Of a DNA stretch of 64,000 bases, positions 3,923 to 35,091 are shown piece by piece (position 1 is the stretch's first letter; each line of letters starts with the position of its first letter). Position numbers and translations under genes: made by a program. This stretch comes from an uncultured Candidatus Rokubacteria bacterium (GTDB lineage Bacteria; Methylomirabilota; Methylomirabilia; Rokubacteriales; DASRDR01), in assembly GCA_963826115.1 (NCBI GenBank), contig CAWGVS010000002.1, positions 32,001 through 96,000 on the forward strand, in the 5' to 3' direction. The notes beneath the pieces are model-generated. The model was not told where the DNA came from. It ran no database searches and was given only the letters and a program-made list of their open reading frames with translations.

Positions 3923-4978
3923 ATGGGATCGTTGTTCAGGCGGACGAACTCCCGGAACTGGTGGATCAAGTACTGGGCGAACGGGCGTCAGCACCGGGAG
4001 AGCACGCGGACCGAAAAGGAGAGTGAGGCACGACGGGTCCTCAAGGAGCGGGAGGGGCGCGTGGCGGCGGGACAGCCCGTGCTCAACCGCGCAGACCGCG
4101 TCCGGTACGACGAAGTCGCCCAGGATCTTCGGACGCACTACCGAACCACGGGATCGAGGAATGTCGAAGAGGCCGGGTACCGGCTCGATCATCTGGACGC
4201 TTTCTTTTCCGGGTATCGCGTCGCGCAGATCACCCCTCGGCATGTCGAGAAGTACGTGGAGAAGCGCCAGGCCGGGGGGACCTCGAACGGAACGATCAAC
4301 CGCGAGGTGGCCGTCTTGATTCGCATGCTCCGGTTGGCCTACGAATCGGGAAAGCTTCTGCGCGTCCCGGTGATCCACAAGTTGAAAGAAGGCGCGCCAC
4401 GCCGGGGATTCTTCGAGCGCGAGCAGTACGAGGCCGTGCGGCGGTACCTTTCCCCCGACCTGCAGGTCGCCGTGGCACTCGAGTACGCGTTCGGCTGGCG
4501 ATGTCAGAGCGAGGTGCTCACCCTGCAACGGCGCCAGCTCGATGTCGAGGCCGGCACCCTGCGCCTCGAACCGGGCACCACGAAGAACGACGAGGGGCGG
4601 GTCGTGTATCTCCCGGCGGACCTCAAGAGCCAGCTGGTGGAGCAACTCGAACGCGTGCGGGCACTGGAACGGAAGACCGGGAGGATCGTTCCGCATCTGT
4701 TTCCGCACCTTCGAGGACGACACCAAGGCCAGCGGATTCGGGACTTCAGACGGGCGTGGGTGACGGCCTGCCGAAGGGCAGGCGTGCCCGAGATGCTACG
4801 TCACGACTTCCGGCGCACCGCCGTTCGGAACCTGGTCAACGCCGGAGTGCCGGAGCGGGTCGCCATGACCGTGACGGGCCATCGCACTCGGAGCGTGTTC
4901 GACCGGTACCACATCGTGAGTCCGGCAGACTTGCGGGACGTTGCCCGGCGGCTCACCCCGCCCGAGGACCCACGCTGA
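3923..4978 (+). CDS. tyrosine recombinase / phage-type integrase
   Basis: N-terminal arm-binding-like WWIKYWANGRQHRESTRT. Catalytic set R (GWRCQSE), K (TTKN), HDFRR, GH, Y (FDRYH). RBS GGAGGAG. Confidence 0.95.
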   Translation: MGSLFRRTNSRNWWIKYWANGRQHRESTRTEKESEARRVLKEREGRVAAGQPVLNRADRVRYDEVAQDLRTHYRTTGSRNVEEAGYRLDHLDAFFSGYRVAQITPRHVEKYVEKRQAGGTSNGTINREVAVLIRMLRLAYESGKLLRVPVIHKLKEGAPRRGFFEREQYEAVRRYLSPDLQVAVALEYAFGWRCQSEVLTLQRRQLDVEAGTLRLEPGTTKNDEGRVVYLPADLKSQLVEQLERVRALERKTGRIVPHLFPHLRGRHQGQRIRDFRRAWVTACRRAGVPEMLRHDFRRTAVRNLVNAGVPERVAMTVTGHRTRSVFDRYHIVSPADLRDVARRLTPPEDPR

Positions 4979-5033
4979 ACCGGCTACATTTCCGGGTCCA
5001 GCCAGGGGCGGGCACTCGCACAGCCCCCTGGCC
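4810..5033 (+). repeat. direct repeat copy 1: integrase 3' end, arm-like sites and hairpin
   Basis: Aligns by eye with 15341-15560, e.g. ccgttcggaacctggtcaacgccggagtgccggagcgggtcgcc is identical. Confidence 0.9.
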
Positions 5034-5347
5034 AGGCGGAGGTGTGCGTACCCACGCACAGTTGCTGAGGTACAGATGCTGCGTCTGCGCTCAGCGGTCG
5101 TCGGGCGACTCACGAGCCACTTCCCTACTATCCATATTCCGCTGAGTGCGCTAGCCGGGGCCACGCGTGGGCATCTCAAGCGCACCAGCGCACACGCGGT
5201 CCCAGCCGAATAGAATGCAGCAGGCAATTCTGCAGACGGCGGCGAGCCGATTGACCACTTTCTCGCCTGGCTGAGTCCACACGCGTCCGCCTCAGTGCAG
5301 AACGTGCACTGGCTTCGTTTGACGGCTAGCAAGACCAGTGTACGCGC

Positions 5348-7643
5348 TCAGCACTTCCACCACGACGGCGCTCCGACCACCGTCGCTCGATGTTGCCGCG
5401 TTTCGACCACGAGACCTTGCGGGGCCGACAACACCCGCCGGATCGGGTCCTTCGTACGAACTCCGCCGACGCGTCGGCCGGTGGGGCCGAACCACGAGAA
5501 CGCCTTGGACTCGAGTAAGCCGAACCCAGTATCACCAACCATCAGGTCGCCTTGGCCGAACACGTCAACAAGGGCCTCCAGACGATCCTCCGATAAGACG
5601 TACAGGCGCGTGTCGGTCAGCAAGTAGAGATGCGAGTCCGTCTGAATGATGTGGCGCGGGACCGCGCCGAGGTCGTACACACGGACCGGGACGCCTCGGT
5701 CGGACACTTCAACCACCTTTCCGGAATAGCCGGCCAGAAAGACGCGGTTGTCGCTGGAACCGAAGTTCGTGGCGTAGATCCAGTCGGAGGCATGCTTCTC
5801 GGAAACGCCCATGCTAAGGGTGATTTCCAGGCCGAGCGCCCCGCCAGGCGTGCCGCCTACAGGAACCTCCATTCGTTTGCGGCTCAGAATCTTCTCGTAG
5901 GTGACCCGCTCGACCTCGTCGGCGCCGATCCCGCGGAGATCCGCCCCGGTAAGTAGCTCCATTGCGGCCGCGAGCTCCTGGAACCGCCGGGTGGCGTCCG
6001 GATCGTTGGGATTCCTGTCCGGATGCCACCGCATGGCGAGCCGCCGGTACTGGCGGGTGATGTCCGCCGGCGCCACCGGCAGTTCGAGTTCCATCAGTTG
6101 GAGGGCTGTTTCGACGTCGCGGCTAGTGCCCAAGCGCTCCACGCGAGGAGTGGCGACCTTTGTCCACCCCTCCTGCGCCGGCAGTCGGATGCCCCACAGC
6201 ACCTCCCCAGTTGCGGTGGACATGCACCAGGCCTCGTCGACGACGGTCACCAGGTACCTGGACCGATCGGCCGAGATGGCGACGGACCTGACGTGGGTCC
6301 GTAGTTCCCGCGGGTCGATCCCGAGCCGCTCGGCTTGGGCTCGGTACTCAGGAAGGTCTTCGACGCGCTCCGTCAGGATCTGCTCGATTCGGTCCGAATA
6401 GCCGTGGAGCACCCCCTCGCGGGACATGAAAAGGATCGCCGAGCCGTCTGTATTGACGTCCGCGCGGTATACGCCGTGGGCGAGACCACGCTCGGCCACG
6501 ACTGACCCCGCCCGATCGGTCACCCGAAGTACCGCCGCCGCGTCGTCGAAGCCTTCACGGCGCCCATGGGGATCGAGCCAAAACGTCGAGCCACTGGTCG
6601 GGAAGGTGTCTTTGTAAGCGGGGTCCGGGCGCTGTTCCGGTGCGAGCTTGTGCTCAGAGAGGATCCGCCACCCTTCGCCGTCGGCCGCGAAGCGCTGCGC
6701 CGCTTGCGGAGCCGACGCGCGCCTGAGACTCGCCTCGGCAACGCGCACGGTCTCCGCCCAGACCCGGTCGGCGTGGTCCTCCGTCTCCTGCTGTTGCCGC
6801 CTCTCCCAATGCGCCGGTGCCTTTGGGAGCCGGACATACGGGAGTGCGGCGAGGTCGATTTCCCGTGCGCCCAACGGCGAACGCCGTGGGCGCGACCGCA
6901 GCACCGGCGCGATGGTACGCGTGGACGGCTGCGGCGGCGGACCCGTGCTCGTCAACGCCGTGGACACACTCACTGCCGATACGTCGGTGGCGACCGTCGG
7001 GTAGAGCTGGAGGCTCGATCCCTTCTTCACTCGTCGGATCCGACCAGCTTTTTCGAGCCACGCCGCGAGCTGAGAGACGCGGCGGCCATCCGCGACACCA
7101 AGGTGGGCTTTGAGCCCGGACTGCGCGAGTCCCGGTTCCCGGCGCACCACACCCATGATGCCAACCACGAGTTCAATATCCGCTTCCGCCTGCTCAGCCG
7201 ACGGCAACCAGTCGCGGAGCTCACGCACGCCTTCCAGCGCGGCGCGAAGTTCCCGAATACCCTCGCGATCCTCCAGGACCGCCATGAGCGTCGGCGCCGT
7301 GTGCACGGCATGTGACGTCCTGATGTCGAATCTGCCGTACTCACGCTGACACTCCCGGACGAACTGCGACATGATCGCGTAGGTCTCGCGCGCGGCGGCG
7401 ATCGCCGATCGATAGTCCTGATCTGCCTTTCCCCGCTCGATCACCGCCGAGAGCTCGAAGTAGCGGTCCGATCACCCGGCCTTCGACTTGGCCGCCTCGA
7501 GTGCCGTGCGCACTCGCTGGTTCCGAGGCGGATGCGATTGATGGCTTCGCCGGCTCGTCGACCGCTGCGGTGCTAGGGTGTGCAGACGTCGGCTTCGCCG
7601 CGGAGATGTCACCGCCGAACAGTCGCTTCAAGAAGGTGACCAT
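5348..7643 (-). CDS. J-domain (DnaJ, HPD) protein with winged-helix-like segment and beta-propeller-like repeats; frameshift near 7472
   Basis: DITRQYRRLAMRWHPDRNPNDPDATRRFQELAAAMELL is a J-domain with HPD. ORF 7341-7643 (MVTFLKRLFGG) likely supplies the N-terminus; the long frame is open up to SDRYFELSAVIER. Confidence 0.7.
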
Positions 7644-7888
7644 CGCATCGCCTCGAGGCAGGAGCGCCGAAAGAGAACAGAAGGAATCAAGCGACTTGCG
7701 AAGCGCAGAGTCGGCGAATTGGCTGCCAGTCTCCGGTGGCCTTCCGGCTCATGAACTACCCGGGCCCCCTGCCCGCCGGGTCCGATCCTTAACCCGGTCG
7801 CGACGTCGGCGATGTCCGAGGAAGTGCCAACGTGGCTCGCGCGGCATCCTCGCACGTCGCACCGAGGTGCTCCCGACCGCCGAGGCGT

Positions 7889-10800
7889 TCATCGTCGGCG
7901 CACAGCCCGTTCGAGAGCGACCGCGCGGACGAAACCGTCTTCCGTATCAGCATGAACGGGTCCGCTATCCGGCACCATGGCAGCCGCCGCCAAGTAGTCA
8001 TGGGGCCTGCACGTGAACACAACGATCTGAAAGGAGCGAGCCTTGTCTATGAGCAACGCGCGGAACCAGTCCATACGGTCGCCGTCGCTCTGGACCAGCT
8101 GATCATCCAGGACGATGGTCGTACAGAGGTACTCCCCAAGGGAGATGCGGTACAACGTCGAGAGCTGCTCTCGCGTTCCGACCGAGATCCGGTCGATCTC
8201 CCGAGCCGCCCCGGCTGCTAGTACGCCCTCTGTGGCGAGGTGGGCGGTCAGCTGCACGCCCTGGTAACGCTGTTTCGTCAACTCTTGGAAGCGACCCGCG
8301 ATGGCTGGGGCAAGGGCCTGGCCCAGATTGTTGGCTTGAGCGGCGTCGGCCTCCTTCATCTGCTCGAGCAGGAGCCGCCATGCCTCATAGTCCTCTTCGA
8401 TCTCTCGCTCCTGGCGCTCGGCGAGGTCGAATGCCTCCAAGGCGTCGCGTAGCCGCTCGCGTGCTACGGCGCCACCGACCTGCTCGAGCGCACCGTGTGC
8501 CCGTTGCATCTCACGATCGATATCATCGAGGACCCGTTCGGCGGTCGCCAGGGTATCCCGAGATGCGGACAGCTCGCCCGCGCTGATGTCCCGCGCTGGA
8601 ACCGGAAGAGCGGTGTGCCGCGCCGATGCCGTGGAGAGCATCGCCTCCGCGGCATCGAGATCGTGCGCGGCGCGCAGTTCCTGCAGATCCGCAAGGTGGC
8701 GCATCTCGGAGGCGTGTTCGGCGGTCGCCTGTGTGACAGCCTCTTGAGCAGTGTTGGTGGCCGTGCGCGCCGCATCCGCCTTGGCGCGCGCACCGGCTAC
8801 GGCTTCCTCCATCTTCCGCGTGCGTGTCTCGATCGAACGCTCCAAGGCGCCGAGCTCCGCCGCGATCCTCTCCCGATCCGAGAAGGCGGCACGGAGGGAC
8901 TCTTCGGCCGCGCTCGCCGACTCGGCGATGCCAGATGGAAACTGCCGAACGGCGGCGTCCCGCGTCTGCTTGGCGGCGTCGAGAGTCGCCCGTGCCGCCC
9001 GAACACGCTCCTCCGCGACGCTGTGCGTCGTGGCCGCCTCTCTCGCCGCGCTCCTCGACTTTTCCGCCTCCTGCGACGCTTGTTGGCGACGAGCCCCGAG
9101 GGCGGTGCCCGGATCCTTGCCCAACCGGTCGAGCTCAGCGCTCAGACTCTCGAGGGACACGTCGCCGAGGGCCGCATGGCAGGCCTCGGCACGGGAGAGA
9201 GCCGCGGTCAGCGCGTCTTTCGCGCCGGCGAGAGCCGAGATGTCCCGGCGAACGACATCCAAGGCCCGGTCCATTTCTTTGAGGCTCGCATCCAGCTCCC
9301 GCGCCTCCGCCACCCGCGTTTCGAGCACATCCAGATCAGACGCGCCGGCCGCGGCGAGGTGCGGCGCCACCTCACCCGCCCAGCGGGCTTCCAGGCGGCG
9401 GACAGTGTCCTGCGCCTCACGGCGCCCCCCTCGGACACGAACGGTGGCGAGGTCGGCTATGCCGACTTCGACATCACTGTTCGCTTCGATCTCGAACGGC
9501 TGCGCGATGACTCCCGGATCGTCGTGGGCCCCGTCCTTGCGGACGTGGAGGTCGAGGGGGGCCCGCGGAGTCACGGTCACGACGAGGCCGACATTCAACG
9601 CCCCGCGGGCACCCGCCAGGTTCGCCGCGAGGGCTCGCATCGGCGCCAGGGCTTCGGGAGCGGGGACAATGATGGCGGCACGGCGCTTCGCCGCCTCCAC
9701 GCGTTCGGCAACCGTCTTAAGCAGTTGCGCCTGAAGGCCGGCCTCCTTGTCCACGCTGGAGCGGCTGTTCACGACCTGGCCGTCGGCCGCTTGCGCTGCC
9801 AGGGCGCGTTCCAGCAGGTCATACCTTCGCAGTTGCTCACCGACCGCCCTCTCCCCTTCGTCCGCCCGGGACCACTCCTCCCGCACCTGGGCGGCCATCG
9901 CTTCCAATCTGCCGTGTTCCTCCTCGGCGCGCAGCACTTCATCGACGCACTTCTGCGCGGCGGCGACTGCATCGATCGCCTTTTGGGCCTCCATCGCCAC
10001 CTGCTCCGTTGCGGACCTGCGAAGTTCAAGGCCTTGACGCGCCACGGTGTCGGCCATGGCCGGATCCAATCCCGCTGCGCGCGCGGTCTCCTCGGCGGCC
10101 TTCAGACCATCATCCGCTGTAGCCTGGACGTCCCGAGCGATCTTCAGAGCCTGTCTAGCGTTGTCCCGCTTCCCAACAAGCAACTCGACGTTCTGACCGG
10201 CGACGACAACCTCCTCATCCATCTTCCGAATCTGGCCGACCGCCTCCCGCGCGACACGGACGCACTCTGCACCCGCCGCAAGCTCCTCGGTCTGCCTGGT
10301 GAGCAGCTCCACCGCGGCGAGCCCTTCCGTGGCGACCCTTAGGTCCTCCTGATACTGGACGCGCTTCGACACCAGGTCCCGAAGCTGACTCTCCACGCCC
10401 TCGGAATCGTGGACCACCTTCTGCCAACGCTCCTTCTCCTCTCGCGCCGCGTTCAGGCGGTCGGCGGCGGCCTTGAAGACACTCCCCCGCGCCGTCTTCT
10501 TGGCACCCTTGTCCGTGTAGGCTGCGTCTCGTCTGGACTGCACTTCCCGAAGCAAGCCGACGAACAGCGGATCCTGCGCAAGCGCCTGCAACGCCGCGGC
10601 GATCCGTTCCTTGCCCGTTGGCGCGGTGTCGCGTTCCAGGCTTCCCTCAAGGATCGCGCTGACGTCGGCCTGTGTGGACAGCAACGCGGTGGCCAGAAAG
10701 CTGGTCGGAAGACCCTTGGCGGCCCCCGAGCCGCCCGGCTCGGGGATTCCCCAGCGCAGGATCTCCCGCAGTCTGGCATCGACCCTCCGGGCACGTTCCA

Positions 10801-11122
10801 CTTCATCGAACTGCTGACCATCCCGGGACTCCTGCAGCACGGACGAACCGCCCTTCCCGAACTGCTTTCGCACGCGCCAGAAGCGCTGCGCATCCGTTTG
10901 GAACGTCAGCTCGACCATGGGGTCCTGGCCACCGGTCCAGGGCACGAACGATTCGCAATGGGTTGACGTATGGGGTAGAAGGAGCACCAACCGGATCGCG
11001 TCCGCCAGCGTCGACTTGCCGAGATCGTTCGGACCATAGAGCACGTTCAGTCCTGGGCCGAAGACAACCTCCCCCGCCCCAATGCCGGCAACATTCTCGA
11101 CGCGGAGTCGATGAATCCTCAT
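7889..11122 (-). CDS. SMC/Rad50/SbcC-like coiled-coil ABC ATPase (YhaN-like)
   Basis: Walker A GPNDLGKST, long heptad coiled coil, signature ISVGTREQL, Walker B IVLDDQLVQSD, C-terminal FTC. ATGA overlap with the upstream nuclease. Confidence 0.9.
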   Translation of the reverse strand: MRIHRLRVENVAGIGAGEVVFGPGLNVLYGPNDLGKSTLADAIRLVLLLPHTSTHCESFVPWTGGQDPMVELTFQTDAQRFWRVRKQFGKGGSSVLQESRDGQQFDEVERARRVDARLREILRWGIPEPGGSGAAKGLPTSFLATALLSTQADVSAILEGSLERDTAPTGKERIAAALQALAQDPLFVGLLREVQSRRDAAYTDKGAKKTARGSVFKAAADRLNAAREEKERWQKVVHDSEGVESQLRDLVSKRVQYQEDLRVATEGLAAVELLTRQTEELAAGAECVRVAREAVGQIRKMDEEVVVAGQNVELLVGKRDNARQALKIARDVQATADDGLKAAEETARAAGLDPAMADTVARQGLELRRSATEQVAMEAQKAIDAVAAAQKCVDEVLRAEEEHGRLEAMAAQVREEWSRADEGERAVGEQLRRYDLLERALAAQAADGQVVNSRSSVDKEAGLQAQLLKTVAERVEAAKRRAAIIVPAPEALAPMRALAANLAGARGALNVGLVVTVTPRAPLDLHVRKDGAHDDPGVIAQPFEIEANSDVEVGIADLATVRVRGGRREAQDTVRRLEARWAGEVAPHLAAAGASDLDVLETRVAEARELDASLKEMDRALDVVRRDISALAGAKDALTAALSRAEACHAALGDVSLESLSAELDRLGKDPGTALGARRQQASQEAEKSRSAAREAATTHSVAEERVRAARATLDAAKQTRDAAVRQFPSGIAESASAAEESLRAAFSDRERIAAELGALERSIETRTRKMEEAVAGARAKADAARTATNTAQEAVTQATAEHASEMRHLADLQELRAAHDLDAAEAMLSTASARHTALPVPARDISAGELSASRDTLATAERVLDDIDREMQRAHGALEQVGGAVARERLRDALEAFDLAERQEREIEEDYEAWRLLLEQMKEADAAQANNLGQALAPAIAGRFQELTKQRYQGVQLTAHLATEGVLAAGAAREIDRISVGTREQLSTLYRISLGEYLCTTIVLDDQLVQSDGDRMDWFRALLIDKARSFQIVVFTCRPHDYLAAAAMVPDSGPVHADTEDGFVRAVALERAVRRR

Positions 11123-12282
11123 GGCGCGCGCTCGATCAGGGCATCGTGACTCTGGAGAAGCTTGTACAGGTGGGCCAACGCGCGAGTCGCTTTCGTCTTC
11201 TCGGCTTCGTCGACTGAATCGCCAACGATTCGGTCGAGGCGTGCCACCGTGTCTTTGAGGACAGCAGGAAGGTCGTCTGGAAAGGCACCCGAAGACCCCG
11301 CCTGCAAGCGCAGGTTCGTGCGGTCCACGAGCAGCACGCCCGCGCGTCCGTGAGTCGCGTCGGTTCCCTGGAGATCCTGCACAATCCGCTCGAGTTCGCT
11401 CTCCTCGGACAGAGAGACGATCATGTCGAGGTGGAGCCTCACCACGTGCCGCTCGAGGTGTTGGGTGGTCAGCACTCTGCGCAACTCATTCATGTCACGG
11501 CAATGAACGTCCATCCAACGCCAAAACGCTACGGGCTCCGCATCGACCCGAGGACGGCGACCGTGCCGGAACAAGGCGACGAGCGCCACGTTGCCGGCCG
11601 TCGCCTCGTCGAAGGACGTGGCTTCTGGAGCGCCGGGATACACGGTCGGGACCGGCAGCGCCTCTGTGACGTCGCGGAACGAGTGGGTATCGCCGATGGC
11701 CAAATAGTCGAGTCCGCGCTGAACGCCGGCGTCCCGACGGATTGGGAAATTCGTCTGGTGTCCCTCGATGTCGAACGTTTGGCCGTGAACACAGCCGATC
11801 CGGAGCCGCATATCACCGGGCTGGCGCGCAGGCAGCGCCATCGCAAGGTCGTTCTCGCCCGCCTTCGAATGACACGGCCGCGCGTAAAGGACTGCATCGG
11901 GCGTGATCTCGTACTCAAAGTCGTCTCGATCGACCACATGCACCCACTGCGGAAGACGCGACCGAAAGGGATGCCCTGGAGCCCACACCGATTCCGGAGT
12001 CAGGGGGTCATGGTTGCCGGGGACAAGGAACATGGGAGCATGCGGAGGGGGCTGATCCCTCAACACCTTGACGAGCCCCTCCCAAAAGTCCGCACTCGGT
12101 GCCGGATCGTCAAACAGATCGCCCGCGCACAGAACAGCGTTGACGCTGTTCCGTCGCGCCACATCGAGGATCCTCGAGATCACCTCCATCCGCGCCCGCG
12201 ACAGCTTCTTCTGCGCCTCCTCGGGAAATGACGGGAACCGGCGCCCGAGGTGCCAGTCCGCGGTGTGCAGCAGCCTCAGCAC
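11119..12282 (-). CDS. Mre11/SbcD/YhaO-like metallophosphoesterase nuclease
   Basis: HTADWHLG, AGDLFD, PGNHD, HG, GDTH, YPGAPE motifs. Probable GTG start at 12282 overlaps the SNF2 stop. Confidence 0.9.
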   Translation of the reverse strand: MLRLLHTADWHLGRRFPSFPEEAQKKLSRARMEVISRILDVARRNSVNAVLCAGDLFDDPAPSADFWEGLVKVLRDQPPPHAPMFLVPGNHDPLTPESVWAPGHPFRSRLPQWVHVVDRDDFEYEITPDAVLYARPCHSKAGENDLAMALPARQPGDMRLRIGCVHGQTFDIEGHQTNFPIRRDAGVQRGLDYLAIGDTHSFRDVTEALPVPTVYPGAPEATSFDEATAGNVALVALFRHGRRPRVDAEPVAFWRWMDVHCRDMNELRRVLTTQHLERHVVRLHLDMIVSLSEESELERIVQDLQGTDATHGRAGVLLVDRTNLRLQAGSSGAFPDDLPAVLKDTVARLDRIVGDSVDEAEKTKATRALAHLYKLLQSHDALIERAP

Positions 12283-15221
12283 GACGTCTTCGGGTCCGGG
12301 GGGTTTATCCGGAATGCCGCTCGGAACAGCCGCGTCACTTTGGGCGCCCGATATCGAAGCTCGTGGTATTGGTCCCGCCATTTTCGGTAGACCTCATCTT
12401 GCCTGGAGTCCAGAGCGTTGATCCGGCGCTCCAGCGCCTCGTCCCTCGTTGCGAGCCGCTCGATCTCCTCCTCGACCCTCTCGCGAGCGCTCGACCCGAC
12501 GATCTGATCGCGGCGATCTCGCGCTGAGCGTAACTGTTCGGCGATCCTGGCCCGTTCGCGGCGGCTGACGAGTACCTTGTCGTCGACGAACCGCTCGAGC
12601 TGCCCGATAGCCTGGTCGAAATGCTCCTGCTCCCTCTTTTCGACTTGCCGCTGGTCGACGAATACCGCCTCGTCTACGGCGTCATCGAGCCAGGGGGGAT
12701 CGACGATGGCCTCGATCGCGGGTCCGTCCACCGCCCGCAGGCGACAGATCTCAGCGGCCAGCGTCGGCTCGATGGGAACGCCCTCCACGACGGCCGCGGC
12801 GATCACTCGGTGCACCGGCTCGAAGCCGGCGTAGTCCACGAGAGCCACTCCGAGCACACCGGTCTTTCCCGCCAGAGCCCACAGATCGGCCGACGCGTCG
12901 TGCGGCAGCAAGAATCCGACCGAGCCCCCGGCCCACGTTCGGGCGTCTGCGATCGCCGCGTGGACCAATGGATGCGACAGGTTCAGCGCCTCGGCGTCCC
13001 GAAGACCTCGCGCATCTCCGGTCGCAAACAGATGGCCACTCCCGTGTCTGGGAGTGAGAGGTCCCGGCGTCGCAACATCAAAGATGACCCGACCACGCTC
13101 GTCGGAATGCCGGTACTCCACCCCACGCGCGTCGAGGTAGCCATCCACCAGTTCGGCGAGGTCTCGGTCGAGCTGCGCGAGCGCACCGGGCAATTCCGCG
13201 CGAAGCCGCCGAAAGACCTTTCGCACGTCGTCGTCGAACCGGGATTCGATGACCTGCGAGGTGCGCTCGTACTCCTTCTCGTACGCGTCCCGCCGATCCG
13301 AGATCCTGTCGCGGAGCGCAGCGATCTCTCGGGTCATCTCGTCAATGGTGCGCGACCGGCTGTAGATGCTCCGGAGGTCGCTCTCGAGCTCGACGGATAG
13401 AGCCGACACGACGATCTCCGGGGCGTCAGTGCGGGGCTCGTGCAGTACGTGGTCCGAGGCGTCCAGGACCTTGCCGAACAGGTCGAGCTTCTGGCTCAGG
13501 ATCTCGAAGGTCAGTCGATGGGCCTCATTGTCGCGCGCGATGAAGTTGACCACCGTGACGTCATGCTGCTGGCTGTAACGATGGCAGCGGCCAATGCGCT
13601 GCTCGATGCGCTGGGGGTTCCATGGCAGGTCGTAGTTGATGACCGTCTCGCAGAACTGGAGGTTCAGCCCCTTCGCGCCGGCCTCGGTGCACACCAGAAC
13701 CTTCGACCGAGTTCTGAACTCATGGACAAGAGCCAGCCTTACCGCTACCGTGCGACTGGGTCTTGACCCGGGCGCAAGGCGGACTCCTTCCTCCTGCTGC
13801 CAGCGAGTGTAGGCCTCGGTGGCGCGCTCGTGGTCGTTGGCGCCGCGGAACAACGTGATCTCGTCGTCCTGCAGACCCATGTCAAGTAGGAGAATTCGGA
13901 TGTACTCCTGCGTCCGTATGGATTCGGTGAACACAACGGCCTTCCCGCTACCGCGCCCCTCTCGTCCCAGCTCGAGCACAAGGCCGATCGCCTCCTTGAA
14001 CGAGCGCGCCTTCGCATCGTTTGGAAGAGCGCGAGCACGAGCGACGAAGGCTTCGACGCGGGCCAGCTCCGCAGCAAGGGCCAGCCGGTCCGTTGGAGGC
14101 CGCGTCTCCTCGGGTTGCGCCTCGTCATCGTCCTCCTCTTCCAGATCGAGCTGGTTCTCGATCGCCATGTCATCGACGGGCTGACCGGATTCGAGTCCCC
14201 GAAGACGCCGCGCGACGTTCTCGAGGCTCGCGGCCAGCGCGGAAATCGATGACGCCATGCGCCGATGGAACCCGATCAGCAGCAGCCGGCGCTGCCGACC
14301 AGAGAACGCGTAGATCGAAGGCTCAAGGAGATACTGCGTCACGTCATCGTAGAGCGACCGCTCGTCGTCACTCATCGAGTACTCGTAGAGCCGGCATCGG
14401 CGCTGCGTGAAGGGCCGATCCAGGAACTCCTGGGCCTGCCGGCGAAGCGTCCGCTGCAGCACAGTCGCGAGGCGTCGCTGGAGCTCGTGCTCCTGGCCGG
14501 GCACCAGCGTCCGGTCATCCTCGGCACAAAAGACCTGGCGGAAAGTAGTGATGTCGCCGAGCAGCGTGCCCGTGGGTTCCACGTATTGGACCAGCCCCCA
14601 CAGCTCCGCGAGCGAGTTTTGTATCGGCGTCGCGGTGAGCAGAAGGACGGGGGAGGACCGAAGAAACCCGCGAACCCGATGCGCCATCATCGCCTCTTCC
14701 GAGGCGTCGTCGTAGATGCCGTCGCGTCCGTAGCGCTTGTGCAGGCCCGCGAATATCTCGTGCGCCTCGTCGATGACCACCAGGTCAAAAGGAGGCACGG
14801 CGCCCAGGGGCGTCGCCCCACGCTCGCTGCCCGCGAACTCACGGCCCACCAAGTACACCCCAGGCGCGAGGAACGTTTGGTCCTCTCGCGCCTGGACGCC
14901 GAAGAGGTTGAACAGCTCGTTCTGCCACTGGCCGATGAGCGACTTGGGGACGATCAGCAGGATGCGCTGAGCGCCTTCCGCACGTGTTTGTGCGATCACC
15001 AACCCGGCCTCGATGGTCTTGCCGAGACCGACCTCGTCCGCGAGGATGCAGCCGCCTTCCCTTAGCCGTCGCAGCGCAAAGATGACCGCGTCGATCTGGT
15101 GGGGGTTCGGGTCGATCCGTGCTTGGCGTTGGGACGCCGCATAGCGCTCCCGGTCATCTGGCCGGCGGATCCGCACAAGCTCTTCGGCGAGAAGGCGACG
15201 ATTGAATGGATGGAGGTTCAT
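12276..15221 (-). CDS. SNF2-family (RapA/DrmD-like) helicase/translocase
   Basis: NPHQIDA, LADEVGLGKT, DEAH, LTATP, GLNLQ, YDLPWNP..IEQRIGRCHR, C-terminal coiled coil. Confidence 0.92.
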   Translation of the reverse strand: MNLHPFNRRLLAEELVRIRRPDDRERYAASQRQARIDPNPHQIDAVIFALRRLREGGCILADEVGLGKTIEAGLVIAQTRAEGAQRILLIVPKSLIGQWQNELFNLFGVQAREDQTFLAPGVYLVGREFAGSERGATPLGAVPPFDLVVIDEAHEIFAGLHKRYGRDGIYDDASEEAMMAHRVRGFLRSSPVLLLTATPIQNSLAELWGLVQYVEPTGTLLGDITTFRQVFCAEDDRTLVPGQEHELQRRLATVLQRTLRRQAQEFLDRPFTQRRCRLYEYSMSDDERSLYDDVTQYLLEPSIYAFSGRQRRLLLIGFHRRMASSISALAASLENVARRLRGLESGQPVDDMAIENQLDLEEEDDDEAQPEETRPPTDRLALAAELARVEAFVARARALPNDAKARSFKEAIGLVLELGREGRGSGKAVVFTESIRTQEYIRILLLDMGLQDDEITLFRGANDHERATEAYTRWQQEEGVRLAPGSRPSRTVAVRLALVHEFRTRSKVLVCTEAGAKGLNLQFCETVINYDLPWNPQRIEQRIGRCHRYSQQHDVTVVNFIARDNEAHRLTFEILSQKLDLFGKVLDASDHVLHEPRTDAPEIVVSALSVELESDLRSIYSRSRTIDEMTREIAALRDRISDRRDAYEKEYERTSQVIESRFDDDVRKVFRRLRAELPGALAQLDRDLAELVDGYLDARGVEYRHSDERGRVIFDVATPGPLTPRHGSGHLFATGDARGLRDAEALNLSHPLVHAAIADARTWAGGSVGFLLPHDASADLWALAGKTGVLGVALVDYAGFEPVHRVIAAAVVEGVPIEPTLAAEICRLRAVDGPAIEAIVDPPWLDDAVDEAVFVDQRQVEKREQEHFDQAIGQLERFVDDKVLVSRRERARIAEQLRSARDRRDQIVGSSARERVEEEIERLATRDEALERRINALDSRQDEVYRKWRDQYHELRYRAPKVTRLFRAAFRINPPDPKTSC

Positions 15222-15340
15222 CAGACGGCCCTTGGACGTGCAGAGGCGAAACGCGACGGCCGTCGATCGCTGCCCTCAGTAGCGGCGTTTGCCCTCTTCT
15301 GGGCCAGCATCATGGGATCATGGGCCGGTGGTGTCGTTCA

Positions 15341-15504
15341 TCCGGCGTACTCCCGTTCGGAACCTGGTCAACGCCGGAGTGCCGGAGCGGGTCGCCTGAC
15401 GGGCCACCGCACTCGAAGCGTGTTCGACAGGTACCACATCCGTGAGTCCGGCAGACTTGCGGGAGGTTGCCAGGCGGCTCACCTCGTCCGAGGAACCACG
15501 CTAA
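15341..15504 (+). pseudogene. degenerate fragment of the integrase 3' end (part of repeat copy 2)
   Basis: Homologous to 4810-4978, with a 7-nt deletion (gtcgcc[atgaccg]tgacggg), a 1-nt insertion (cacatccgtg) and substitutions. Confidence 0.85.
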
Positions 15505-15505
15505 A

Positions 15506-15527
15506 CCGGGTACATTTCCGGGTACAG
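15506..15527 (+). repeat. tandem arm-type integrase-binding-like repeat CCGGGTACA-ttt-CCGGGTACA
   Basis: Perfect 9-mer repeated with 12-bp period, ~50 bp from the tRNA end. Imperfect copy at 4980-5000. Confidence 0.55.
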
Positions 15528-15559
15528 CCAGGGGGCTGGCACTCGCCCAGCCCCCTGGC
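15527..15559 (-). terminator. GC-rich hairpin downstream of tRNA-Asp
   Basis: Perfect 13-bp stem gccagggggctgg / ccagccccctggc with 7-nt loop; no clear U-tract. Confidence 0.5.
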
Positions 15560-15575
15560 AACTACCCGTCAGATA

Positions 15576-15653
15576 TGGCGGGGTCGACGGGACTTGAACC
15601 CGCGGCCTCTGGCTTGACAGGCCAGTGTGCTAACCAGGCTGCACCACGACCCC
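15576..15653 (-). tRNA. tRNA-Asp (GUC)
   Basis: Reverse complement folds as a cloverleaf: acceptor GGGGTCG/CGACCCC, anticodon arm CTGGC-CTGTCAA-GCCAG, T-loop TTCAAGT, G discriminator, encoded CCA. Confidence 0.98.
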
Positions 15654-15672
15654 GATGCGGAAGAACGCAGTC

Positions 15673-15701
15673 AGACTAGCGACTTACCGCACACCTGTCA
15701 A
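15673..15701 (-). promoter_or_regulatory. sigma70-type promoter for tRNA-Asp, inside the right-hand island
   Basis: TTGACA-N17-TAGTCT on the minus strand, 19 nt upstream of the tRNA 5' end. Confidence 0.75.
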
Positions 15702-15746
15702 CTCGCGACGTCGGTCACGCGCGACATCGGTAGCAACCGGACCAAA

Positions 15747-15766
15747 CTATGCCCACACCTATGCTT
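15747..15766 (+). repeat. arm-like tandem repeat CTATGCCC-acac-CTATGCTT
   Basis: Same 12-bp-period motif as at 16373 and 28007. Confidence 0.55.
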
Positions 15767-15820
15767 GAGAGACCACTGGCCTTTGGGGCCAGTGGCTCAG
15801 GGGAGTGCGTTGGGTGGGAT

Positions 15821-16060
15821 TCAGGCACTCCGCGCTCGTCGGACGTGTTCGGCGAGGAGGTCGTTGATGAGGGACTGATAGCCAAGCCCACGCCGCTTGG
15901 CCTCGCGCCGCACGGCATCGAGAACCTGGGGATCGATCCGAATCGCAATGAGTCGGCGGGCCGCCGCCCCCAGGGGGGGCCGCCCGACGCGCCGCATCGC
16001 CCGGAGCTGCGCGGGGGACGCCTCCGGGATATCGGAGAAGTCAATCCCGGGACGCCGCAT
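15821..16060 (-). CDS. brnA: BrnA-family antitoxin (RHH C-terminus)
   Basis: IDFSDIPE...GRPP...IAIRIDPQVL..R..A...G.GYQSLINDLL; overlaps the toxin 3' end. Confidence 0.85.
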   Translation of the reverse strand: MRRPGIDFSDIPEASPAQLRAMRRVGRPPLGAAARRLIAIRIDPQVLDAVRREAKRRGLGYQSLINDLLAEHVRRARSA

Positions 16061-16328
16061 AGCCCGCCCGCTCCTTGCGGCTCGCCCGGCGCGCGCTGAT
16101 GATGCGGATGCTCTCGCCATCGCCTTCCCTCCTCACGGTATACGCCACGATGAGCACACGGCCGGTCGCCGCTCGGCCCAGTCGGAGGAATCGCGCCTCC
16201 TCCGCGGAGTGACCCAGATCCGGGCCATCGAGGGCGTCCGGATCACCGAACACGGTCGCCGCCTCCTCGAACGAGACCCTGTGCTTGGCGCGGTTGACCG
16301 CGGCCTTCCGCGCGTCCCATTCGAACAT
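16041..16328 (-). CDS. brnT: BrnT-family ribonuclease toxin
   Basis: MFEWDARKAAVNRAKHRVSFEEAATVF.DP...HS.EE.RF..LG...IRIISARRA. TATACT lies 5 nt before the ATG (possibly leaderless). Confidence 0.92.
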   Translation of the reverse strand: MFEWDARKAAVNRAKHRVSFEEAATVFGDPDALDGPDLGHSAEEARFLRLGRAATGRVLIVAYTVRREGDGESIRIISARRASRKERAGYAASRD

Positions 16329-16372
16329 GGTTCAGTATATACGAAACTCGGTCGGCTACCGCGACGTGCTCG

Positions 16373-16402
16373 CTATGCCAGAAACTATGCCCGCGACCGC
16401 CC
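16373..16402 (+). repeat. 30-bp direct repeat (1 mismatch) of 28007-28036
   Basis: ctatgcc[a/c]gaaactatgcccgcgaccgccc at both positions. Confidence 0.85.
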
Positions 16403-16677
16403 TCCCCGGCGTCAGCAGGGGGAGTCAAGGATTCCCCGATCCAGCGCATTGGGAAAGACGACGCCTATGGGCCGAGCGACGCGAGCCGGGGGAGCCCCAG
16501 GAGCAGGTTCACGCCGAAGAACATCGCGCCCAGGACCAGCCCATACACCCAGAAATCGCAGCCCCGACGCGATCGTATGCAGGTCCCCGATGACGGCAGG
16601 CCGCTCGATCCAGCGATATCGAGCCGCTCCCGAACCCCTGGCGACCCGTTTCGCTGGTCGTCGCATGAGGTCACTTC

Positions 16678-18015
16678 TCACGCGACGCGGCGGTCCCGAG
16701 CGCGAAGTCGTTCGAGCCGCCGCGCCACTGCGTCGACATCGCGCACCGGGACCATCTGCTCGATCTCCCTGCCGAACAACAGATCCAGCGTCCAGGCGAC
16801 TAACACCCGGAGTTTCTTCGGCAGCCGCGGCAGCTTCAGCCAATACACGGTTCGCCAGAGCCCCCAGGCGACGAAGCCGGAGAACTTCAATCCGAACACC
16901 ATCGCCACGCCGGTGTGGCGTCCGATGGTAGCCAGCTGCCCTTGCGTGGTATAGGCGAATGGTCTGAGAGGACGACCCAGAATCGTTGCTTCGATGTTCC
17001 TGGCCGCCGTGCGTCCCTCGCGCAGCGCGTGTTGCGCCGTCGGCGGATGCACATCGCCCGTCGTGCCATGGGGCACCGCCGCGGAGTCGCCCGCCGCCCA
17101 CAGCCCCGGCAATCCGCGGATCCTGAGGAATTCATCGACCATGAGCCGCCCTTTCACCTTCTGACACGGCAACCGATCGATGACTGGACTGGGCTTCACG
17201 CCGGCAGTCCACAGCAGCGTTTCGGCGGGAATGGCGGCACCGTTGCTCAATTCGACCACCGAACCGTCGTACCGCTCGACGCGCGCGCCCGTCATGACTT
17301 CCACCTTGCGCTCGGCCAACTTGCGCTGGGCATACGCGCCGAGTTCTTCGCCCAGTTCTGGTAGCAGCGATCTCCCCGGATGCACGATGACGACGCGGAT
17401 CAAGGCCTCGTCCAGCTCAGGATAGTGTCGCACTGCCTCGCGCACGAAGTCGTTCAACGCGCCGATGGCTTCAACACCGGCGAACCCGCCACCAGCGGCG
17501 ACAAACGTGAGCAGCCGCCGCCGAGTAGACGGGTCGTTCTGGATCGTCGCTTCTTCCAGAAGGCCCAGCACGCGCTCGCGCAACAGCGCCGCGTCGGTCA
17601 GGCTCTTGATCGTCACGGCCCAGTCCCCCACCCCGGGAAGGTCGAAGAAGTTCGTCTCGGACCCCAGCGTGAGGACCAGATGGTCGAACTCGAAATCGAG
17701 CTCGCGTCCCGCCAGGCCGCCGATGCAATGCACGACGCGGGCCTCCACATCGATGCGCTGCACATCGGCTTCGACGAATCTGACGTGACGAAGAATGCGT
17801 CGGATCGGATTGATGATGTCGCCGGGGTAGAGATCACCCGCCGCGACTTCGTGCAACATCGGGGTAAACAGCACGAAGTTCTCGCGGCTGATGAGTGTCA
17901 CCTCCATGTCGGCCCGGCGCGCGAGTCGTTTCTCGAAATACACGGCCGCGCTGAGTCCCGCGAAGCCGCCGCCAGCAATCACGATCTTCGTCTTCTTCAT
18001 GGTCATCGTCCTCAT
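16678..18015 (-). CDS. ndh: type II NADH dehydrogenase-like FAD oxidoreductase
   Basis: IVIAGGGFAG, FTPMLHEVAAG, GGGFAGVE, WTAGV, WAAGD, PPTAQHA.REG, GQLATIGR. Start uncertain (18015-18000). Confidence 0.88.
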   Translation of the reverse strand: MRTMTMKKTKIVIAGGGFAGLSAAVYFEKRLARRADMEVTLISRENFVLFTPMLHEVAAGDLYPGDIINPIRRILRHVRFVEADVQRIDVEARVVHCIGGLAGRELDFEFDHLVLTLGSETNFFDLPGVGDWAVTIKSLTDAALLRERVLGLLEEATIQNDPSTRRRLLTFVAAGGGFAGVEAIGALNDFVREAVRHYPELDEALIRVVIVHPGRSLLPELGEELGAYAQRKLAERKVEVMTGARVERYDGSVVELSNGAAIPAETLLWTAGVKPSPVIDRLPCQKVKGRLMVDEFLRIRGLPGLWAAGDSAAVPHGTTGDVHPPTAQHALREGRTAARNIEATILGRPLRPFAYTTQGQLATIGRHTGVAMVFGLKFSGFVAWGLWRTVYWLKLPRLPKKLRVLVAWTLDLLFGREIEQMVPVRDVDAVARRLERLRARDRRVA

Positions 18016-18017
18016 GC

Positions 18018-18280
18018 TCACGACCCTGACGGGCCGCTCCACTCGGTGTCGCTGAGGCTCCAACCGCCGCCGAGCGCCTTGTACAGGCGCACGTACGTGA
18101 GGAGCCGACCGTGCCGGATCTGCGCCAACGTGGTCTGCGCCGGACAAAGCCGGGCCTGGCTCAGCTGCGACTCCGCCAGCCGGAGCTTCGCGTCGGCCTG
18201 GTCGACGGCCGTCTGGAAGGGGCGCGAATCGACCAGGAACAGGAGCAGCGAGCGGCGATCCGTCACCATGAATTCGTCCT
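18018..18280 (-). pseudogene. collapsed RND efflux remnant (adaptor fragment fused to outer-membrane-factor C-terminus)
   Basis: LLFLVDSRPFQTAVDQADAKL resembles the AcrA/MexA-type adaptor; it runs in frame into VRLYKALGGGW, the OprM/NodT C-terminal motif. Confidence 0.6.
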
Positions 18281-18432
18281 CCGTCCCCGGTGCCTCGGGC
18301 TCCTGTTCAATCTCCGACCGCTGCCGTCGGCAGCTTCGAACGCGGGGTACCGGGTGCACGGCGCGGGCCAAGCGCACGTGCACGTCGCAGGGCCGGCCGA
18401 GAGCGCGAAAGAGTCGCCGACGCACGCCGCGG

Positions 18433-18512
18433 TGTGCGGATTCACACATCTCATGTGCGGACCTGCACCAAAGTGCCTTCCACCCGGACCCTCAGCTTGG
18501 TGTGATCCTTGC
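18433..18512 (+). promoter_or_regulatory. tandem TGT-N10-ACA enhancer-like sites plus sigma54 -24/-12 promoter
   Basis: TGTGCGGATTCACACA (18433), TGTGCGGACCTGCACC (18454), and TGGTGTGATCCTTGC (18498-18512, GG-N10-GC). Confidence 0.55.
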
Positions 18513-18636
18513 CTCGCCCAAGGCAGCCGCGCGCCGGCCTTGCCAGCGTGCTGTGTGGGGCTTGGCGCCAGATCTCGTGCGTCCGCCGGCCAATGGGTTG
18601 GATGTCGGCGGAGCACGCGCGGACCGAGGAGGACCT

Positions 18637-18876
18637 ATGAGTCAGACGGATGTGGAACGCACGCTGGGTCGCTTGCTGACGGACGCCGCGTTCCGGCAGG
18701 GTTTCTTTCAGGACCCGGACCGGGCGTGTCTCCTTCTTGGAGTCCGGTTGGCGCCGCACGAGCTCGAGGCGCTGCTTCGCGTGCCACGCCGACGATTGGG
18801 GAACTTATCGGAAAAGCTCGACGACCGGATCTGTCGGCTCCATATCGAGCACGCCGACGATCGCCGAGCCCGGTGA
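18637..18876 (+). CDS. Os1348-like NHLP-clan small protein (79 aa)
   Basis: MSQTDVERTLGRLLTDAAFRQGFFQDPDRAC...L...EL.AL; strong GAGGAGG RBS. Confidence 0.7.
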   Translation: MSQTDVERTLGRLLTDAAFRQGFFQDPDRACLLLGVRLAPHELEALLRVPRRRLGNLSEKLDDRICRLHIEHADDRRAR

Positions 18877-33594: not shown

Positions 33595-34421
33595 CTACCG
33601 CGGGAAGAGCAGCTGGATCTGGATCCGGAGCTGCCACTCCGCCGCGTCGTCCGGCCGCACCACGTTGTAGTAGGCGCTGGCCTGCGCGTTCACGGGCGCT
33701 TGCCGATCCGCACGATCTTGCCCACGCCGACCCCGATGGGCACCGTCCACCGGTCGTCGCTGTCCGCCTCCCAGTTGGCCGTGATGATGGGTGCCGACGT
33801 CACGTACCACGCGTCGGGCAGGTTGTAGTTGACGAACGGCTGGATCAGCATCTGGTTCACGTCCCGCCGATCGCTGTCCCCCGCGAACGACCAGACGTTG
33901 TTGATGAGGGCGCCAAGCACCCACGGCCCGTGCACCGTCAGCGCGACGGCCGTCGGACCGGCCCCCCACTTCCCCTGGCCCAGCGAGTCGTCCGTCGCGC
34001 TGGGGAACTGGAAGATCGGTCCCACGCCCCAGATCAGCTTCCCGGGCTTCGCCGGCGAGAAGAACAGCGACTGCTGGATGTCGCCGAGGCCGAACACCTC
34101 GCCGACGCCCGGCGCCAGCTCCGGCTGGTAGATCAGGGGCACGATCGTCCGCGAGATGAGGTTCCAGTCCTCGGTCAGCCGGAACGGGATGACCGGCTGG
34201 ACGTTCAGGATGTACTGCACGTCGTCGTTCGGGCCCACGCCGAAGTTGACGTTGTTCTGGAACGGCACGGAGATCAGGTCCGCCACCGGGTTCTGCGTCT
34301 TCTTGGCGAGATCCGTGTCGTCCTGAGCCCAGCCAGGCCGCGGCCCGCAGGTCAGCGCCAGCACGAGCAGGAACACCGCCCCGATGCCGCGGCTCGTCCA
34401 TCGTCGCCCAGTGCGCCTCAT
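33595..34421 (-). CDS. outer-membrane beta-barrel protein (sulfatase-associated type), frameshift near 33695
   Basis: Signal peptide, DLAKKTQNPVADLISVPFQNN, QPVIPF, QPFVNYN; C-terminus WQLRIQIQLLFPR in the shifted frame. Confidence 0.78.
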
Positions 34422-34728
34422 GTGCTCTCCTATCATCCGTTTCGCCCTGGCCTCCCCGAGTCGCCGTCGCGAGTCGCGCGGCGCCCCACCGGTCGGCACC
34501 GGCTCCATCGCCTCACTTCTGGAACGGGTAGAGCGCGACCACCGCCAGGAGCTCGTTCAACGGGGCTCGCGCCAGGTCGTCGTCCAGCAAGGCCAGGACT
34601 CCACAGTCACCACGGAGGCGGGGCGCGACGCCCCAACCATAGCCACATGGCCCCCGACGGGATATAGGACTTTGGTCTTACTCGGAGCGAAGACGCCCGA
34701 GCACTTCATACGCCGGACGCCCGGCCGC

Positions 34729-35091
34729 TCAATGCCCGCCCGTGACCGTGTAGCCCTCGCGGCGCAAGTCGTCCGCCAGGTCGCGCTCCATCTGCGCGGC
34801 CGCCTCGTACGGCATGGGGTTGAGGTGAGCGTACAGCTGCGGCAGGAGACGCACGCTGTAGCGTCTGACCAGCGAGACGCTCCGGATGCCGAGTTTGTGA
34901 TTCTGGAAGCGCCTCTCGGGGTCGAGCCCCGTGAGCCCGACATACACGCTTGGCTCTGCGGGATCGCGGCCGGGATTGGCCCGGCGCACCTTTCGGAGCC
35001 CGTTGACGGCGTCGTCGAGCAAGACGACGTACACGCTGTGGTGCCCCGACGTCGATGCGATCGTAGATCGGCTCGGCTTGCGTCGCTTCAT
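34729..35091 (-). CDS. small GIY-YIG-like nuclease
   Basis: SVYVVLL...VYVGLTG..PERRFQNHK.G...ME..LA..LR..GY.V. Confidence 0.7.
   Translation of the reverse strand: MKRRKPSRSTIASTSGHHSVYVVLLDDAVNGLRKVRRANPGRDPAEPSVYVGLTGLDPERRFQNHKLGIRSVSLVRRYSVRLLPQLYAHLNPMPYEAAAQMERDLADDLRREGYTVTGGH

Follow-up and report, generated by a model that had tools for sequence, protein, structure and literature searches.

A conserved SNF2, SbcD-type and SMC-like gene trio from a Rokubacteria genome, predicted to be a mobile DNA-targeting defence cassette

Introduction

Does a compact set of three genes, coding for an SNF2-family ATPase, an SbcD/Mre11-type nuclease and an SMC/Rad50-like ATP-binding cassette (ABC) ATPase, defend bacteria against invading DNA, or does it serve DNA repair, a neighbouring system or the element that carries it? 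The question is raised by a 64,000-nucleotide (nt) stretch from an uncultured Candidatus Rokubacteria bacterium (assembly GCA_963826115.1, contig CAWGVS010000002.1, positions 32,001 to 96,000 of the forward strand). This whole stretch is referred to as the window, and the three genes within it as the trio (Table 1). A reading of the letters alone (the original prediction) had proposed a candidate anti-phage system of three overlapping genes with intact-looking catalytic motifs, carried as cargo between an integrase and its tRNA target.

On balance, the trio is predicted to be an unnamed, mobile and self-contained cassette for DNA-targeting defence against phages or other invading DNA. It is probably an undescribed immune system, because it passes among soil bacteria as one unit and is often found beside anti-virus genes.

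Conservation of the trio

Species-representative genomes were scanned with the SbcD protein, and 23 loci were returned (given below by their L numbers). Twenty-one of them, at 52-100% identity, came from Acidobacteriota (several classes), Binatota, Verrucomicrobiota, records named 'delta-proteobacteria' or 'proteobacteria', and Rokubacteria; the single Rokubacteria record was identical to the window. Two Treponema loci (26-28% SbcD identity) were rejected as generic SbcD relatives only. All 21 genome loci carried the SNF2 gene upstream, then SbcD, then the ATPase gene downstream, on the same strand. The trio was cut by a contig end in L018 and L021, the genes were in pieces in L019, L020, L023, L027 and L028, and the ATPase was of a shorter form in L012 and L024.

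The same order was kept in five of five divergent acidobacterial loci (SbcD 49-55%, ATPase ~30-45% identity). For metagenomes, 80 loci were found with the ATPase profile. The trio was colinear in all 36 with at least 4.3 kb of upstream sequence, one of which was flagged by the script solely for an extra weak reverse-strand match, and SbcD was present in all 26 with 300-4299 nt upstream. Homologues and synteny of the three genes, whose comparison had been proposed with the original prediction, thus gave a conserved order in every set (21/21, 5/5 and 36/36 loci). Open reading frames (ORFs) of 22 loci were clustered all against all; the clusters found in every locus were the trio and its shadow ORFs, and flanking genes were unconserved. 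The trio is a strictly conserved, self-contained unit.

Table 1. Position of the trio, its domains and the surrounding features in the window
Feature	Position	Strand	Details
SNF2-family ATPase gene	12276-15221	minus	981 amino acids; from the ORF list
SNF2 C-terminal domain	12279-13301	minus	residues 641-981, ~340 amino acids; family-specific; DrmD models stop short
SbcD/Mre11-type metallophosphoesterase gene	11119-12282	minus	387 amino acids from GTG at 12282
SMC/Rad50-like ABC ATPase gene	7889-11122	minus	1077 amino acids; from the ORF list
Midpoint domain of the ATPase	9311-9688	minus	~residues 479-604, ~125 amino acids; VGL, DG and GG motifs; replaces the Rad50 zinc hook
J-domain protein gene	5348-7643	minus	DnaJ domain; downstream of the trio in the same repeat-bracketed segment
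Tyrosine integrase gene	3923-4978	plus	intact, 351 amino acids; Phage_integrase E 1.6e-12, Phage_int_SAM_2
Left direct repeat	4809-5034	plus	last 170 nt of the intact integrase gene and 56 nt downstream
Right direct repeat	15341-15560	plus	decayed integrase 3' end and downstream hairpin, 16 nt from the tRNA-Asp 3' end
tRNA-Asp (GTC)	15576-15653	minus	ARAGORN; Rfam tRNA 70.8 bits

The gene junctions were read on the minus strand, where the letters bore out both overlaps of the original prediction. Positions 12282-12276 read GTGCTGA, that is a GTG start, one base and the TGA stop of the SNF2 gene, and positions 11122-11119 read ATGA, the ATPase start lying over the SbcD stop. These stop/start overlaps are conserved as [A/G]TGCTGA in 10 of 15 loci and as NTGA in 14 of 15.

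The longest SbcD ORF (11119-12381, 420 amino acids) begins with ATG at 12381 and shares 106 nt with the SNF2 gene. Translation probably starts from GTG at 12282 rather than from this ATG, because the resulting 387 amino acids are the length of most relatives, the aligned codon is a start codon in 12 of 15 loci compared (ATG in L011-L013, GTG in nine), alignments with divergent loci begin only at residues 26-32, and the Metallophos domain starts at residue 35. The ATG at 12381 stems from a conserved Lys-Trp pair of the SNF2 reading frame.

A scan with Rfam gave tRNA as the sole match, and a promoter and terminator scan found sites no commoner than in shuffled sequence. Four sequencing runs were compared, all as contigs. 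Short contigs with 0-3 differences lay inside the ATPase, SbcD and SNF2 genes in the RNA-library run X8 (records 27-31). They are at most a weak hint that the trio is transcribed, since such libraries can hold DNA.

Protein families and domains

Motif conservation was judged on 16 (SNF2), 18 (SbcD) and 12 (SMC-like ATPase) orthologues. All catalytic motifs that had looked intact in the window proved invariant or nearly so across them.

The SNF2 protein was matched by SNF2-rel_dom (E 1.5e-26) and Helicase_C (E 3.3e-17) of Pfam, with a helicase core at ~residues 36-650 that carries the motifs GLGKT, DEAH, TATP and QRIGRCHR. Its C-terminal domain is common to 390 proteins. The 120 listed of these are mostly ~980 amino acids long (range 660-1026) and bear generic names only, with no system name among them. 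A 21-sequence alignment of the domain shows conserved blocks, and its last ~120 residues look like a coiled coil. The domain profile had no significant match among PDB sequences (best E 0.44), and the domain looks new at sequence level.

The SbcD protein was matched by Metallophos of Pfam (E 7.7e-12) and by TIGR00619 (sbcd) at 61.7 bits, below the cut-off of 77.65. Mre11/SbcD phosphoesterase motifs I-V are present as DWH, GDLFD, GNHD, VHG and GDTH (18 orthologues and a 50-row alignment), motif V being GDxH instead of GHxH. The best matches among PDB sequences were Thermotoga Mre11/SbcD and E. coli SbcD, limited to the N-terminal ~90 residues.

The N and C termini together make up the ATPase head, and two long helical arms separate them. 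AAA_23 of Pfam matched the first 47 residues (E 1.2e-8), and similarity to heads of Rad50, LmuB and RecF type is confined to the first ~100 residues. The best NCBIfam Rad50 model scored 34 bits against a cut-off of 847, and the family profile matched Rad50 heads only among PDB sequences (residues 1-94, E ~1e-11). The ABC head motifs are conserved: GKST (Walker A), STQ (Q-loop), SVGTREQLS (signature), VLDDQ (Walker B, with DD in place of DE) and the H-loop. At E<=1e-30 the family comprises 521 clusters (50% identity). Of 150 listed clusters, most are ~1050-1100 amino acids long and can be aligned over their whole length (28-56% identity), the others being fragments or longer forms.

Between the arms, a hidden Markov model of the midpoint domain matched 128 of 133 full-length representatives of the family, with the matches centred at 0.50 of the protein length. 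A CxxC motif was found in the central third of none of the 133, and the window ATPase has no CxxC at all. An SMC hinge was considered as the identity of the domain and is unsupported at sequence level: alignment with 20 canonical Smc hinges (hhalign) gave a probability of 1%. In the window's genome the SMC hinge family PF06470 matched the canonical Smc gene alone. The midpoint-domain profile had no significant match among PDB sequences, and this domain, too, looks new as far as its sequence goes.

The original prediction had spoken of an SbcCD-like complex. The parts do belong to the Mre11/Rad50 families, but the ATPase has no zinc hook, which had been missed, so that the label is only partly apt.

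A short-arm form of the ATPase (~910-940 amino acids) was seen in L012 (11263-13980), in L024 (11245-14064) and in the family representative P0245. Compared with the window protein, some of the sequence from ~residue 350 to ~775 is missing. P0245 (913 amino acids) keeps the midpoint domain, centred at 0.51 of its length.

Comparison with known systems

With PADLOC (v2.0.0) and NCBIfam, the trio did not qualify under any model for DISARM, Zorya, Lamassu, Wadjet, Gabija, Septu, PARIS or the PDC/HEC candidates. The statement that the trio matches none of the known architectures held against both model collections, and neither they nor the literature searched yielded a match to an already named system. 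A system of SNF2, SbcD and SMC-like proteins is not described in the full-text literature searched, whose scope did not extend to Krishnan et al. 2020 (NAR), reportedly a classification of ABC ATPases, and its supplements. Within these databases and this literature, the trio is probably unnamed.

The closest likeness by parts is to SbcCD/Mre11-Rad50. A calcineurin-type nuclease with Mre11 motifs lies directly upstream of, and is translationally coupled to, a split-head ABC ATPase whose coiled coil is long, and the best solved-structure sequence matches of the two are Mre11/SbcD and Rad50. The trio differs in that both proteins miss the curated family cut-offs and are similar only in their first ~90-100 residues. 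The ATPase has the midpoint domain instead of a CxxC hook and DD rather than DE in Walker B, and the SNF2 gene is added as an obligatory third gene. The trio is also patchy and horizontally spread.

DISARM of class 1 contributes the models closest to the SNF2 core. DrmD model PDLC02619 was the closest in PADLOC (432 bits, profile positions 5-625 of 872), and NCBIfam DrmD_b scored 434 bits, short of its cut-off of 950. The C-terminal domain differs from that of DrmD, since only profile positions 21-621 of 868 were matched, and the trio has no DrmA, DrmB, DrmC or methylase. In type I Zorya, an SNF2 ATPase (ZorD) is likewise part of a defence system, but ZorD models gave at most 88 bits (PADLOC) and 55.7 bits against a cut-off of 1500 (NCBIfam) on the SNF2 protein, and the cassette is without ZorA, ZorB and ZorC. 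Wadjet (JetABCD) also combines an SMC-type ATPase with a nuclease acting on foreign DNA. The trio differs in having no kleisin/KITE component or Toprim nuclease, and no Jet model was among 25 listed of the 26 PADLOC families matching the ATPase at E<=0.01.

In the archaeal Mre11-Rad50-HerA-NurA operon and in eukaryotic MRN with SNF2 remodellers, Mre11-Rad50 likewise has its own ATP-driven DNA motor for end processing. HerA belongs to a different motor family, being an FtsK-like hexamer, and these systems are core repair machinery, not mobile cassettes.

Lamassu shares with the trio an SMC/Rad50-like ATPase, proposed as a DNA sensor, that is coupled to a nuclease, and one paper argues that it derives from SbcCD (PMC12663957). 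However, LmuB models matched residues 1-131 only of the trio ATPase (44 bits). The trio nuclease is of SbcD type instead of a Cap4/Sir2-type effector, SbcD had no LmuA or LmuC match, LmuC is absent and an SNF2 motor is added. SNF2 is unmentioned in the consulted passages of a Lamassu-family preprint (bioRxiv 10.1101/2022.05.11.491447).

B. subtilis SbcE/SbcF (YhaN/YhaO) consists of a hook-less SMC-like ATPase with a 'unique central domain' and an SbcD-like nuclease; the pair is conserved among Gram-positive bacteria and has roles in competence and in the repair of double-strand breaks (PMC2811018). Compared by description only, the architecture resembles that of the trio: a hook-less ATPase with a central domain and an SbcD-like nuclease. 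In B. subtilis, the third operon gene is YhaM, a presumed exonuclease, whereas that of the trio is the SNF2 ATPase.

Distribution and horizontal spread

For the distribution among relatives, the search covered 40 further genomes from the genus, family and order of the window's genome. True ATPase orthologues were found in two, G004 (~90-95% identity) and G008 (~60-80% identity, with stops). Twelve other ATPase 'matches' were discarded as P-loop matches of 44-75 residues, mostly to unrelated ORFs of ~560-610 amino acids. SbcD was found at E<=1e-50 in 6 of 301 sampled Acidobacteriota genomes.

The SNF2 and SbcD proteins of the window are 72-78% identical to versions from Acidobacteriota, Binatota and Verrucomicrobiota. 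The Smc of the same genome, a stretch of which was searched as a control, matched nothing, and RecA was taken instead; the RecA cores of the same genome pairs are 64-74% identical. An SNF2 tree of 16 rows was built with a quick method and drawn midpoint-rooted, with L026 on a long branch. The window sequence nests among acidobacterial ones (nearest L011, 81% identity), and Binatota and 'delta-proteobacterial' sequences form one starred clade among the acidobacterial rows.

The guanine-cytosine (GC) content of segment 5034-15340 is 65.8% versus 71.9% for the genome, below 99.5% of the genome's 10-kb windows. The trio is horizontally mobile and not vertically inherited core DNA, as its patchiness, its cross-phylum identity at the level of RecA and its low GC indicate. 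Vertical core inheritance, which would have spoken against the original prediction, was therefore not what was found. A low-GC stretch (65-69% versus 71.9%) extends over ~3000-33000 of the window, on both sides of tRNA-Asp, so the variable region exceeds the trio segment.

Plasmid SbcD-like relatives were distant only (28-32% identity), and the three loci inspected had no SNF2 gene. These loci (L036, L037 and L038) hold pairs of the distant SbcD-like gene and a gene for an 880-residue AAA ATPase. The pair stands alone in L037. On Sphingobium plasmid pMSHV (L038, 4610-18900), a WYL protein and a TM0106 RecB-like helicase-nuclease come before the pair and a restriction-modification system comes after it. 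The plasmid pairs suggest a wider class of 'helicase + SbcCD-like pair' modules.

Gene neighbourhoods

Flanking ORFs (136, of at least 150 amino acids, chosen by a rule on length and GC3, the GC of third codon positions) from the window and 20 genome loci (all but L020) were scanned in two sets of 68. With PADLOC at E<=1e-10, the first set gave matches to Type III methylase models (3), OLD/AriA-type ATPase models (4) and GajB models (3), and the second to GajB (1), PglX (1) and other models matched singly. These counts are upper bounds, because housekeeping-looking genes of the window are part of the second set and match RtcR and GajB models.

Direct neighbours were identified by Pfam on both flanking sets and on 20 direct neighbours. 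In L009, L014 and L017 the gene right behind the trio codes for a GajA-like (Gabija-like) OLD-ATPase, and L009 and L014 have a GajB-like (UvrD-like) ORF next to that gene; GajA-like genes were also found in 8 of the 80 metagenome loci. Type III restriction-modification genes precede the trio in L010, L014 and L017, with a UvrD helicase also in L010. In L015 the direct neighbour is AIPR, in L021 an Upf1-like helicase together with REase_MTES_1575, in L022 a DNA methylase, in L024 Schlafen/AlbA_2 with nSTAND1-WD40, and in L025 an AAA_15/21 ATPase. In L024, ARAGORN placed a tRNA-Ser (16103-16177) inside the ORF taken as the nSTAND1-WD40 gene (14225-17953), so that either one of the two calls is wrong or the ORF extends too far.

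Defence genes are generally expected to make up a few percent of all genes. A defence-type direct neighbour was found in 9 of the 21 genome loci, a count gauged against this general expectation and not a matched control set. The defence-island link of the original prediction is borne out to this extent.

Integrases were seen at the island edge in L014, together with tRNA-Ser, and as an integrase-like match near the trio in L072. Phage_integrase was found in 2 and rve_3 transposases in 3 of the 68 ORFs of the second flanking set; the 25 commonest families listed for the first set did not include Phage_integrase.

Integrase, repeats and tRNA-Asp

In the window, the trio and the J-domain gene alone make up a 10.3-kb cargo (5034-15340) enclosed by two direct repeats, which are 89-92% identical, the right copy having a 7-nt deletion and 1-nt insertions. 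A search for a tRNA-derived attachment repeat was negative: the 26-nt 3' end of the tRNA occurs once in the window (at most 3 mismatches). The trio had been placed between an integrase and its tRNA target. Both do flank it, but the repeats that bracket the cargo derive from the integrase and none derives from the tRNA. The layout is not that of a plain integrase-cargo-tRNA element. The likeliest explanation would be a tandem of two related elements at tRNA-Asp whose inner integrase was for the most part deleted.

For an unoccupied site, 15 genomes of the genus were searched via the genes flanking the island, an NDH-2 gene (16678-18147) and a PD-(D/E)XK gene (1722-2939), and no comparable tRNA-Asp site was found. 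These flanking genes are unconserved: NDH-2 orthologues in the genus are at most 55% identical, and the PD-(D/E)XK gene was seen in G004 and G008 only. A DNA contig in run X1 joins 4977 to 15505, skipping 10,527 nt, as a cargo-free form would. It was not counted as such, its shorter side being 22 letters and the repeats ~90% alike.

The J-domain gene is read in two frames, with a switch near 7445-7470. Relatives of its product are mostly 700-765 amino acids long, and the first 58 residues of a 764-residue relative match ORF 7344-7643. The base at 7470 is missing in some metagenome contigs. L071 (37% identity) and L020 also have a J-domain homologue downstream of the trio, and L165 has one at a distance of 5.6 kb; the other 19 genome loci gave none at E<=1e-5, and the protein had no PADLOC match. 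The gene is possibly an occasional companion outside the conserved core.

Other parts of the window were noted in passing. Positions 1-2942 (76% GC) hold AddAB-like genes for a UvrD-type helicase and a PD-(D/E)XK nuclease. Several copies of the PD-(D/E)XK gene are present in G004 and G008, and the same query gave none in the remaining 12 genomes of the genus. ORF 17380-18876 has a C-terminal match to a Frankia-type ribosomal peptide family at 34 bits, short of the Pfam cut-off of 48. A second SNF2-type ORF (34384-37980, plus strand, 1198 amino acids) matches ZorD and DpdE models with its C-terminal half (at most 399 bits). A long ORF (41593-45450, plus strand) has a segment matching Pycsar cyclase models (E 2.5e-21); it runs to a tRNA-Arg gene and may be over-called.

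Discussion

The prediction of a defence cassette has several observations against it. No other SbcD homologue was found in the window's genome, which is 99% complete, and the trio could therefore supply ordinary SbcCD-type repair. SbcE/SbcF, the nearest studied parallel, is a repair system. The first 68 flanking ORFs include repair genes (3 ATP-dependent ligases, 1 LigD Prim-Pol and 1 SRAP). The direct neighbours are of non-defence type in at least 5 of the 21 genome loci (PAS-GGDEF-EAL in L012, a sigma-54 type AAA protein in L016, TPR/cytochrome in L023, a DEAD-box helicase in L026 and Big_5 in L027), and matched controls are not part of the defence-neighbour count. Many defence systems travel on plasmids and phages. 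In the plasmid collection the ATPase had no match at E<=1e-15, and phage records and viral contigs held only distant SbcD relatives (24-33% and 22-40% identity, respectively) and none that was close.

From these points, the trio might be a mobile accessory machine for break repair or recombination, that is an SbcCD/SbcEF-type end-processing complex with its own SNF2 motor, much as Mre11-Rad50 teams up with archaeal HerA-NurA or eukaryotic chromatin remodellers. It would be retained for aiding the damage survival of the host or of the element and not for attacking invaders. Membership of the nuclease and ATPase in the Mre11/SbcD and Rad50/SbcC families would fit this, as would the precedent of a hook-less pair in break repair and competence, the lack of a second SbcD homologue, the ligase, LigD and SRAP genes in some flanks, and a cassette without methylase or toxin-like effector. 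Repair genes of such kind are usually widespread and vertically inherited, however, and the trio is patchy (2 of 40 related and 6 of 301 Acidobacteriota genomes), has a cross-phylum identity of 72-78% and is of foreign GC. Defence-type genes directly adjoin it in the nine loci named above, whereas the ligase-type genes lie several kb off and are not direct neighbours. We regard a repair role, the main rival of the defence reading, as unlikely, though worth keeping in mind. If the trio were a mobile repair module instead, it would still be a clear example of break-processing machinery passed horizontally among phyla that have few cultured members.

It is distinctly improbable that the trio is a non-autonomous auxiliary or back-up module of an adjoining restriction or OLD/Gabija-type system, for instance one that degrades what the neighbour has cut, or an anti-plasmid module in competition between elements. 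SMC-type systems such as Wadjet target plasmids, which would suit the latter. The former would agree with the Gabija-like and Type III restriction-modification genes beside the trio (3 of 21 genome loci each), with the GajA-like genes in metagenomes and with the distant pair on pMSHV between a RecB-like helicase-nuclease and a restriction-modification system. Against such dependence, no single neighbour is conserved, and many loci, the window included, have no recognisable partner system in the cassette's own segment.

A service of the trio in the life cycle of the integrative element, such as processing excised or replicating element DNA, is very improbable: the trio does lie between integrase and tRNA within integrase-derived repeats in the window, and integrases are near it in L014 and L072, but no integrase was found within 7-10 kb at most loci, and the surrounding genes vary from locus to locus, so that the trio is cargo and not element machinery.

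For the predicted defence cassette, the following mechanism is proposed. The SbcD-type nuclease and the Rad50/SbcC-like ATPase would form a complex of Mre11-Rad50 type, with the arms joined at the midpoint domain. This complex would recognise DNA structure (free or blocked ends, hairpins, replication intermediates) and not sequence or methylation; the cassette contains no methylase. The SNF2 ATPase, docked by its C-terminal domain, would provide double-strand translocation, and may either deliver DNA to the nuclease or dislodge proteins that protect the ends. Complex formation, the trigger, the role of SNF2 and the protective outcome are extrapolated from known SbcCD and SNF2 enzymes.

A more specific version is put forward tentatively, as possible but doubtful. 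Here, the trio would be a self-sufficient, modification-independent immune machine in which a hook-less, end-sensing Mre11/Rad50-type nuclease, closed by the midpoint domain, is driven by SNF2 via the C-terminal docking domain. Linear or replicating invader DNA would be stripped of its end-protecting proteins and processively destroyed. Such an SNF2-driven machine would parallel in prokaryotes the way MRN and SNF2 remodellers cooperate in eukaryotes, and would be a second route, besides Lamassu, from SbcCD-type repair to immunity.

In either case, the midpoint domain and the SNF2 C-terminal domain are two conserved domains without detectable relatives for structural study. If the trio protects its hosts, it would be a widespread defence system of soil bacteria, made from an intact Mre11/Rad50-type nuclease and a motor of chromatin-remodeller type. 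It would then bear on how SMC/Rad50-family machines separate foreign from self DNA without methylation, on the recruitment of repair machinery into immunity, and on whether the partnership of Mre11-Rad50 with an SNF2 motor predates eukaryotes.

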